This document shows, in pieces, positions 11,301 through 11,354 of a stretch of 15,142 nt of DNA (its first letter is position 1; every line of letters starts with the position of its first letter). The notes under the pieces were generated by a model. The model was not told the DNA's origin. It ran no database searches and was given only the letters and a program-made list of their open reading frames with translations. The stretch comes from a virus (taxonomy: Duplodnaviria > Heunggongvirae > Uroviricota > Caudoviricetes). The translations under genes were made by a program, and so were the position numbers. Location: positions 1 through 15,142 of IMG/VR virus record IMGVR_UViG_2671180770_000004. One strand, written 5' to 3'.

Positions 11301-11354
11301 TATTTCTATTTCTATTTCTATTTCTATTTCTATTTCTATTTCCATTTCTATTTC
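11301..11354. repeat. Hexanucleotide microsatellite (TATTTC)n, 9 units (8 perfect)
   Basis: Tandem units at 11301-11342 (7 perfect), then CATTTC, then TATTTC. Lies in the about 490-bp AT-rich intergenic region between the divergent 617-aa gene and the HNH endonuclease gene. Confidence 0.95.

Follow-up and report, generated by a model that had tools for sequence, protein, structure and literature searches.

A variable hexanucleotide array in the nin region of a Stx-type prophage is the MLVA locus VNTR-9 and stands in an IS911-like remnant

Results

Genes and features of the locus

We analysed a stretch of 15,142 nucleotides, positions 1 to 15,142 of the IMG/VR virus record IMGVR_UViG_2671180770_000004 (Caudoviricetes), hereafter called the window. 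It comes from a lambdoid (Stx-type) prophage, the early-right operon of which is on the plus strand. The array of TATTTC units with which we are concerned lies in the nin region. It is preceded by the genes of the CI repressor (on the minus strand), CII, an O-like protein, a DnaB-type helicase, NinB and NinE, and is followed by those of an HNH_3/AP2 endonuclease, NinG, NinH, a NinI-type phosphatase and the antiterminator Q. The closest sequenced phages are the Stx1 phages SH2026Stx1 and AU6Stx1, where stx1AB comes after Q. From about 8900 to 12100 extends an island of low GC content (27-40%) which holds a minus-strand orphan gene, the array and the HNH gene. The features are listed in Table 1. 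Outside this island, two clusters of the 11-bp direct repeat TTGTCCAACGG are found within the O-like replication gene, of 2.9 copies at 5353-5384 and of 2.6 copies at 5419-5447; these are probably the iterons of the phage origin, which are ordinary for lambdoid phages.

Table 1. Features of the locus, with positions in the window
Feature	Position	Strand	Basis or remark
590-aa orphan gene, TTG start (the "617-aa cargo gene" of the earlier note)	9213..10985	-	PHROG alignment, PGAP
Decayed, internally deleted IS911-like (IS3 family) relic, array inside	about 11123..11540	-	blastn against IS911 of phage Sf6
IRR-like right end	11123..11172	-	IS911 nt 1199-1249, 76% identical
orfB N-terminus fragment LIERYRVDTLCYVFGVQCNIYKYWKN	11161..11237	-	aligned to the start of IS911 orfB
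orfA, frameshift region and orfB start	11500-11161	-	IS911 nt 155-457, 67% identity, E 2e-29
orfA pseudogene (C-terminal part of HTH, leucine zipper)	11238..11500	-	BLASTP E 2e-22
Spurious 83-aa "FLFLFL" ORF, antisense to the orfA pseudogene	11243..11494	+	ORF listing
IS30 insertion site in other lineages	11286..11287		14 bp left of the array; locus comparison
Former programmed -1 frameshift site, reads ATATTAAAACAG	11288..11300	-	alignment; IS911 has ATA TTA AAA AAG
Hexanucleotide microsatellite, 54 bp	11301..11354		direct reading and TRF; MLVA locus VNTR-9 / O157-9 / TR1 / Vhec4
T6 run, the A-run of the orfA "KKK" codons; second slippage-prone tract	11367..11372		locus comparison
MLVA primer TR1 site, exact match to ACTGCATGATAAGCCTCAGG	11432..11451	-	primer from PMC2246123
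IRL core	11505..11528	-	IS911 nt 10-33, 24/24 identical
ninF/ninG junction segment, 42 bp	11541..11582	+	97.6% identical to many lambdoid phages
PulseNet primer VNTR-9F site, exact match to GCGCTGGTTTAGCCATCGCCTTCTTCC	11543..11569	-	primer from PMC3321953
HNH_3 + AP2 endonuclease gene	11554..12120	+	domain search; neighbour of the array, not part of it

The orphan gene had been listed as an ORF at 9213-11066, but its start is the TTG at 10985, which has AGGAGG before it, and not the ATG at 11066: residues 28-617 of the listed ORF align to profile positions 1-590 of 590 of phrog_9230, and PGAP annotates the same 590-aa start in NC_049919 (the exact protein in NCBI is WP_054496314.1). The distances which the earlier note had quoted for the array are right when they are counted from the ATG at 11066 and from the HNH start (ATG 11554, 200 bp from the array), whereas the true TTG start puts the array 316-369 bp away from the orphan gene. 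The N-terminus of the 590-aa protein is disordered and rich in Ser and Thr, and the motif LTLNDFLDN is repeated in it; the remainder of the protein is all-helical. No match was found in Pfam, NCBIfam, PADLOC or among solved structures (PDB), the PHROG matches were to families of unknown function only, and the AlphaFold2 model (mean pLDDT 40.5, from an alignment of 14 sequences) is too poor for a fold search. Homologues were found only in E. coli, E. albertii, Salmonella enterica and Providencia alcalifaciens. The one of E. albertii (71% identity) is encoded beside the gene of NleF, a caspase-inhibitor effector, while that of Salmonella (48%) forms a single-gene island adjoining a cytidine-deaminase-type gene. 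We see in the protein a candidate for a type III secretion effector which is so far uncharacterised.

On the right, the relic ends at about 11540 and the ninF/ninG-like segment supplies the ribosome site, the ATG and the first ~9 codons of the HNH gene. As these are the ribosome site and the ATG of ninG, the HNH gene would be read in the pR operon and not from a separate promoter. The ninF/ninG-like segment is followed by an imperfect 20-bp tandem duplication (11572-11612, found by TRF), and the ninG located downstream has a different, AT-rich start which overlaps the HNH stop. These features suggest that a homing-endonuclease cassette has entered ninG at its 5' end and has left this footprint.

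The array

Read base by base, 11301-11354 is (TATTTC)7 CATTTC TATTTC, and a degenerate TGTTTG comes directly after it. The array reported in the earlier note is therefore real, but of the nine perfect units which were claimed eight are perfect and one is the variant CATTTC. Tandem Repeats Finder returns a single array of period 6 (11301-11359, 9.8 copies, 94% matches, score 104), and (TATTTC)3 has 5 overlapping occurrences in the window against 0 in 200 shuffles. On the minus strand the array reads (GAAATA)n, that is to say Glu-Ile codons. The variant unit (11343-11348; GAAATG on the minus strand) is shared with another of the loci described below, L032, and is triplicated in a third one, L029.

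The DNA of the array has an A+T content of 83% and one TpA step in each 6 bp, which makes it H-NS-friendly. Strong planar curvature is not expected, by reasoning and not by a curvature calculation: with a period of 6 bp against a helical repeat of ~10.5 bp, the bends of successive units nearly oppose each other. The single strand of the array has no structure (folding energy 0 kcal/mol), and we rejected hairpin-driven instability on this ground. A scan of 10800-11800 against Rfam at E<=1 returned no family.

An IS911-like remnant holds the array

The first signal came from a sensitive blastn search against phages, in which 11360-11500 was about 75% identical to the IS911 present in the Shigella phages Sf6 and SfII. 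Aligned with the IS911 of Sf6, the minus strand of the window gives three collinear matches (E 2e-29, 3e-08 and 1e-05). IS911 has 36-bp IRs, an OrfA of 100 aa with an HTH and a leucine zipper, and a -1 frameshift (PMC2909936); the relic shows the same succession of IRL, orfA (HTH end and leucine zipper), frameshift region, orfB start and IRR. It differs from IS911 by a DNA identity of about 67-76%, two internal deletions, an in-frame stop, a mutated slippery site and changed termini, and by being single-copy and immobile. One deletion has removed IS911 nt 34-154, including the orfA start and the first ~28 codons; the other, which lies between two direct repeats of ATACTGGAAAAA, has removed nt 458-1198 and with them most of orfB. 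At the termini, the last ~12 nt of the IRL towards 11540 have diverged from IS911, and the IRR ends with TA instead of the terminal CA (the ends of the IS3 family being 5'-TG...CA-3').

The orfA pseudogene has no start codon and contains an in-frame stop (RK*L). Its conceptual translation, TKAMDVGISTIPRWRK*LHDKPQGKGKTLPPIIQKQIEIHELKKKPQQTEIEM(EI)nLKQTTTFLMSYSLNNFSTTW*, is 49% identical to residues 29-98 of IS911 OrfA (E 2e-22) and stops at the same position. The frameshift site, located directly 3' of the array on the minus strand, reads AAAACAG where IS911 has A AAA AAG, which means that the slippery heptamer is destroyed. The short orfB-like peptide taken alone had no match in Pfam (HTH_21 / IS3 test), and the homology is drawn from the DNA and from the OrfA alignment. 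The array itself stands in the place of the IS911 sequence ATT GAA ATG GAG AAT GAA ATA (I-E-M-E-N-E-I), which belongs to the leucine zipper of OrfA and where IS911 has just 3 imperfect hexamers.

Among the intact IS of E. coli, the nearest one has only 74-76% identity with the relic. Two exact-pattern scans did not find the relic in species-representative genomes, and the two named phages which carry it in the phage collection are SH2026Stx1 and AU6Stx1. The relic appears to be confined to E. coli prophages. It is an old, dead and immobile remnant and not a functional member of the IS3 family.

An intact IS911 is also present, in the same orientation, in the ninG gene of the Shigella phage Sf6 (L037 647-1895), about 100 bp further into ninG than the relic. 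The 5' region of ninG has therefore received at least two independent insertions of IS911-type elements.

The array is VNTR-9, and its standard primers lie in IS30

The right flank contains exact matches to the TR1 primer and to the PulseNet VNTR-9F primer (Table 1), which identifies the locus as VNTR-9. The unit of the TR1 locus of Noller is AAATAG (PMC2246123), a rotation of the reverse complement of TATTTC. VNTR-9, Vhec4, TR1 and O157-9 are names of one locus (PMC3768571, PMC3321953), given in E. coli O157:H7 as O157-9 (Keys 2005), TR1 (Noller 2003) and Vhec4 (Lindstedt 2003), and the array is this already known locus. VNTR-9 of O157:H7 and the window share the unit, a right flank 96-100% identical with both right-hand primer sites, the same HNH gene downstream, and variation by whole units. 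They differ on the left side. There, O157:H7 (L002) has a truncated IS30 which abuts 14 bp from the array (junction at L002 5895-5969), and farther to the left the two sequences differ altogether, while the window has an uninterrupted left flank with the 590-aa gene.

O157:H7 keeps the 5' part of IS30, the VNTR and the HNH gene. In other STEC strains the 590-aa gene and the left part of the relic remain, together with the 3' part of IS30, and are joined to tail genes; these reciprocal products were found at the loci L038 and L039, at about 3636-4479. From the arrangement of these sequences we conclude that IS30 inserted in an ancestor and that the lineages keep the reciprocal products of deletions.

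The left-hand primers of TR1, CACTGAAGCCTGTTCCGTTC, and of the PulseNet assay, VNTR-9R, GTGTCAGGTGAGCTACAGCCCGCTTACGCTC, were not found in the window at up to 3 mismatches. Both lie inside the IS30 fragment of L002, VNTR-9R (PulseNet) at 5714-5744 and TR1 (Noller) at 5822-5841. IS30 is a multicopy element. As judged from the flanks and primer sites, the locus of the window is orthologous to VNTR-9, with an allele which is untypable by the standard assay. Strains which, as the window does, carry the VNTR but no IS30 junction would score as null alleles.

Copy number varies by whole units

We compared 37 loci, which are 34 IMG/VR prophage contigs retrieved by a pattern search on the right flank, the window, and two fetched records. 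The copy number goes from 4 to 17 units, and no locus has fewer than 4. Ten loci have flanks near those of the window (no more than 1 mismatch over 600 bp to the left and no more than 4 over 900 bp to the right) and carry 4, 6, 8, 9, 9, 10, 11, 11, 13 and 14 units. This means that the array evolves far faster than point substitutions accumulate. Variant units are themselves tandemly duplicated, as with the three CATTTC of L029, and this is a signature of slippage. The T-run located 13 bp to the right of the array varies as well, being T5, T6 and T7 in 6, 28 and 3 loci respectively.

The locus is present in 524 of 5,426 complete E. coli genomes, at 539 places, so that a genome has it once and rarely twice. 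About 246 of the carriers have the left flank of the window and about 283, mostly O157:H7, have the O157:H7 arrangement (~530 in total); in the latter, about half of the carriers, the cargo gene has been lost to the IS30 insertion. In evenly spaced samples of these genomes the lengths of the matches step by 6 bp, with 6-16 units in the context of the window and 8-13 in that of O157:H7. Among the 37 loci, the distribution is unimodal with a mode at 9-11, and in the window's context odd and even values number 21 and 12. The comparison across related prophages which the earlier note had proposed thus gives a variable and not an invariant copy number, changing by whole units as it had anticipated.

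Among 202 German O157 isolates, VNTR-9 had 6-23 repeats, 15 alleles and a diversity index of 0.90, with 31.7% of null alleles (PMC3321953). The rate at which Vhec4 gained single units in serial passage was about 4.3-4.6e-5 per generation (PMC3777172), and we adopt this slippage rate from the literature. The other 6-bp O157 MLVA loci (VNTR-3, -17, -19, -25, -37 and O157-10) are also hexamer microsatellites with similar diversity indices, and slip at 1e-5 to 1e-3 per generation (PMC3321953, PMC3777172); they differ in lying elsewhere in the genome, several of them within annotated ORFs.

Reading frames, promoters and transcripts

One may ask whether the array is coding, either on the plus strand, for a membrane peptide with a variable (FL)n stretch, or on the minus strand, for an (EI)n peptide. 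The 83-aa ORF spans the array, a hexamer unit keeps the reading frame, and RefSeq annotates a "hypothetical protein" under some long alleles. However, this ORF is antisense to a recognisable pseudogene, has no match in Pfam or PHROG, and loses its native start in the IS30 context. A change in the T5/T6/T7 run shifts its frame, and in all 9 T5/T7 loci it ends 20 or 47 nt past the array, against 137 nt otherwise. We therefore join the earlier note in taking this ORF as spurious. As for the minus strand, an in-frame stop interrupts the EI frame 32 codons upstream of the array, no upstream ATG occurs in any of the 37 loci, and the internal ATG which this frame has in the window comes solely from the variant unit. 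On the evidence of the frames, neither strand of the array encodes a protein; we give the coding reading a negligible probability, and the "hypothetical protein" annotations over long alleles are artefacts.

The array had also been placed in a "divergent promoter region", and a phase-variable promoter switch for the cargo gene had been proposed. What lies there is a dead IS911-like element with no recognisable promoter: a strict sigma-70 scan of 10900-11650 gave 0 sites against 3.3 expected by chance, and the same promoter and terminator scan gave one weak terminator-like hairpin (11410-11426). A relaxed scan gave only weak matches (8-10/12, with spacers of 15-19 bp), none of which has the array as its spacer; moreover, 54 bp cannot fit between a -35 and a -10. 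The -10 of the pIRL promoter of IS911 presumably fell within the segment deleted from the relic. Among the relaxed matches, TTGGTG-16-TATATT (11140-11113, minus strand) is a weak candidate, possibly a hybrid of a -35 from the relic IRR and a flanking -10. It could drive the 590-aa gene, and the array would then be about 160-215 bp upstream.

A contingency locus for the 590-aa gene would work in the following way: a change in unit number would switch or tune the transcription of this horizontally acquired cargo gene, each unit rotating the upstream DNA by about 206 degrees or shifting the geometry of H-NS or of an activator. The array is indeed hypermutable and upstream of a low-GC gene (GC 27-40% across 8900-12100), whose relatives occur only in bacteria known to have type III secretion, one of them beside nleF, and the weak candidate promoter at the relic IRR might serve it. 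Genes of the type III effector kind are often silenced by H-NS. Such a locus should however combine a hypermutable simple-sequence repeat, its position in the controlled ORF or in or beside the promoter, and a linkage between repeat and gene, and here we find only the hypermutable repeat. The array lies within a pseudogene; the TTG start is 316-369 bp away, and the best candidate -35 at least about 160 bp. The array is equally variable in the O157:H7 arrangement, in which IS30 replaced the left side including the 590-aa gene, so that variability is undiminished in about 283 of roughly 530 carriers where the gene is absent. The homologues of this gene in E. albertii and Salmonella have no TATTTC repeat. 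Finally the copy numbers are unimodal, odd and even values both occurring (21/12), with no on/off classes. The proposed switch is thus unsupported, and we consider a contingency locus very unlikely. Among promoter-proximal simple-sequence contingency loci, the TAAA tract of Neisseria nadA lies upstream of the -35 and the TA tract of Haemophilus hifA/B between the -35 and the -10. They resemble our array in being hypermutable short tandem repeats between divergently oriented genes; but they stand within or beside a mapped promoter and travel with the gene which they control, whereas our array, which lies in a pseudogene, is separated by hundreds of bp from both gene starts, and where one neighbour has been lost it is still there and still varies.

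Two further regulatory readings concern transcripts and bound proteins. The sequence (UAUUUC)n, 200 nt upstream of HNH-NinG-NinH-NinI-Q, might act in cis in the early-right transcript, by altering RNA stability, Rho loading or antiterminated read-through, in such a way that copy number would tune Q and the timing of late genes and Stx. The plus strand is the pR direction (CII, DnaB, NinB, NinE, HNH, NinG, NinH, Q), stx1 is directly downstream of Q in the related phage SH2026Stx1, and the tract is C-poor, U-rich and unstructured. Against this, it matches no known RNA family, contains only one C in each hexamer and lacks the G-poor, C-rich character of rut, the O157:H7 locus is in a defective prophage without the upstream early region, and nothing points to selection; we consider this reading very unlikely. 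A perfect (A-R-N)n tract is a motif bound by Hfq, and an RNA from the minus strand of the array would be such a tract (AAU AGA). It can also be imagined that in those non-O157 Stx prophages whose left flank is intact the VNTR has come to serve as a rheostat for the candidate effector gene or for read-through into Q and stx. The unit number would then alter H-NS or Hfq interactions, or helical phasing. This is very unlikely in our estimation, though it would mean, if true, clonal heterogeneity in the expression of virulence genes. More generally, we attach a low probability to the array tuning a neighbouring gene of whatever kind, as judged from the arrangement of the locus. A repeat which did so would be a rare simple-sequence contingency locus in E. 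coli, and nothing here points there.

Discussion

The explanation which we prefer, and hold to be probable, is that the array is the known VNTR-9, a slippage-prone expansion of Glu-Ile codons in a dead IS911-like orfA, and that it is most probably neutral. In the proposed order of events, which we infer, the ancestral sequence would have been the three imperfect hexamers of the zipper codons of IS911 orfA, GAAATG GAGAAT GAAATA (E-M-E-N-E-I). These would have been homogenised and expanded into (GAAATA)n, presumably after the coding constraint was lost. Since then the array would gain and lose whole 6-bp units by replication slippage, without a hairpin. It would most likely be functionless, a neutral molecular clock in junk DNA; we infer this neutrality from the anatomy of the locus, in which the array varies independently of the left-hand gene. 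The shortest allele, with 4 units, is near the ancestral length of about 3.5 units. The minimum of 4 units fits this ancestral length, but it could also reflect maintenance. The variant unit GAAATG may be the surviving Glu-Met pair of the ancestral IS911 orfA, and not a new mutation.

VNTR-9 has been a standard epidemiological marker of O157:H7 for about twenty years, and finding the array is no discovery. What we add is a small detail, namely the origin of a known marker in an IS relic. Neither this origin, nor the possible cause of null alleles which follows, nor the annotation artefact was found in the searchable literature. Both left-hand primer sites lie in an IS30 fragment which only the O157:H7 arrangement has, and this could account for some of the VNTR-9 null alleles, which reached 31.7% in one O157 survey (PMC3321953). 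The same VNTR is present, unassayed, in about 246 complete genomes of non-O157 or atypical STEC. A fast-mutating marker which has long been used, as VNTR-9 or O157-9, for the fingerprinting of Shiga-toxin E. coli would thus be a clean example of the birth of a repeat, in the leucine-zipper codons of a dead IS911-like orfA, once the coding constraint is lost.
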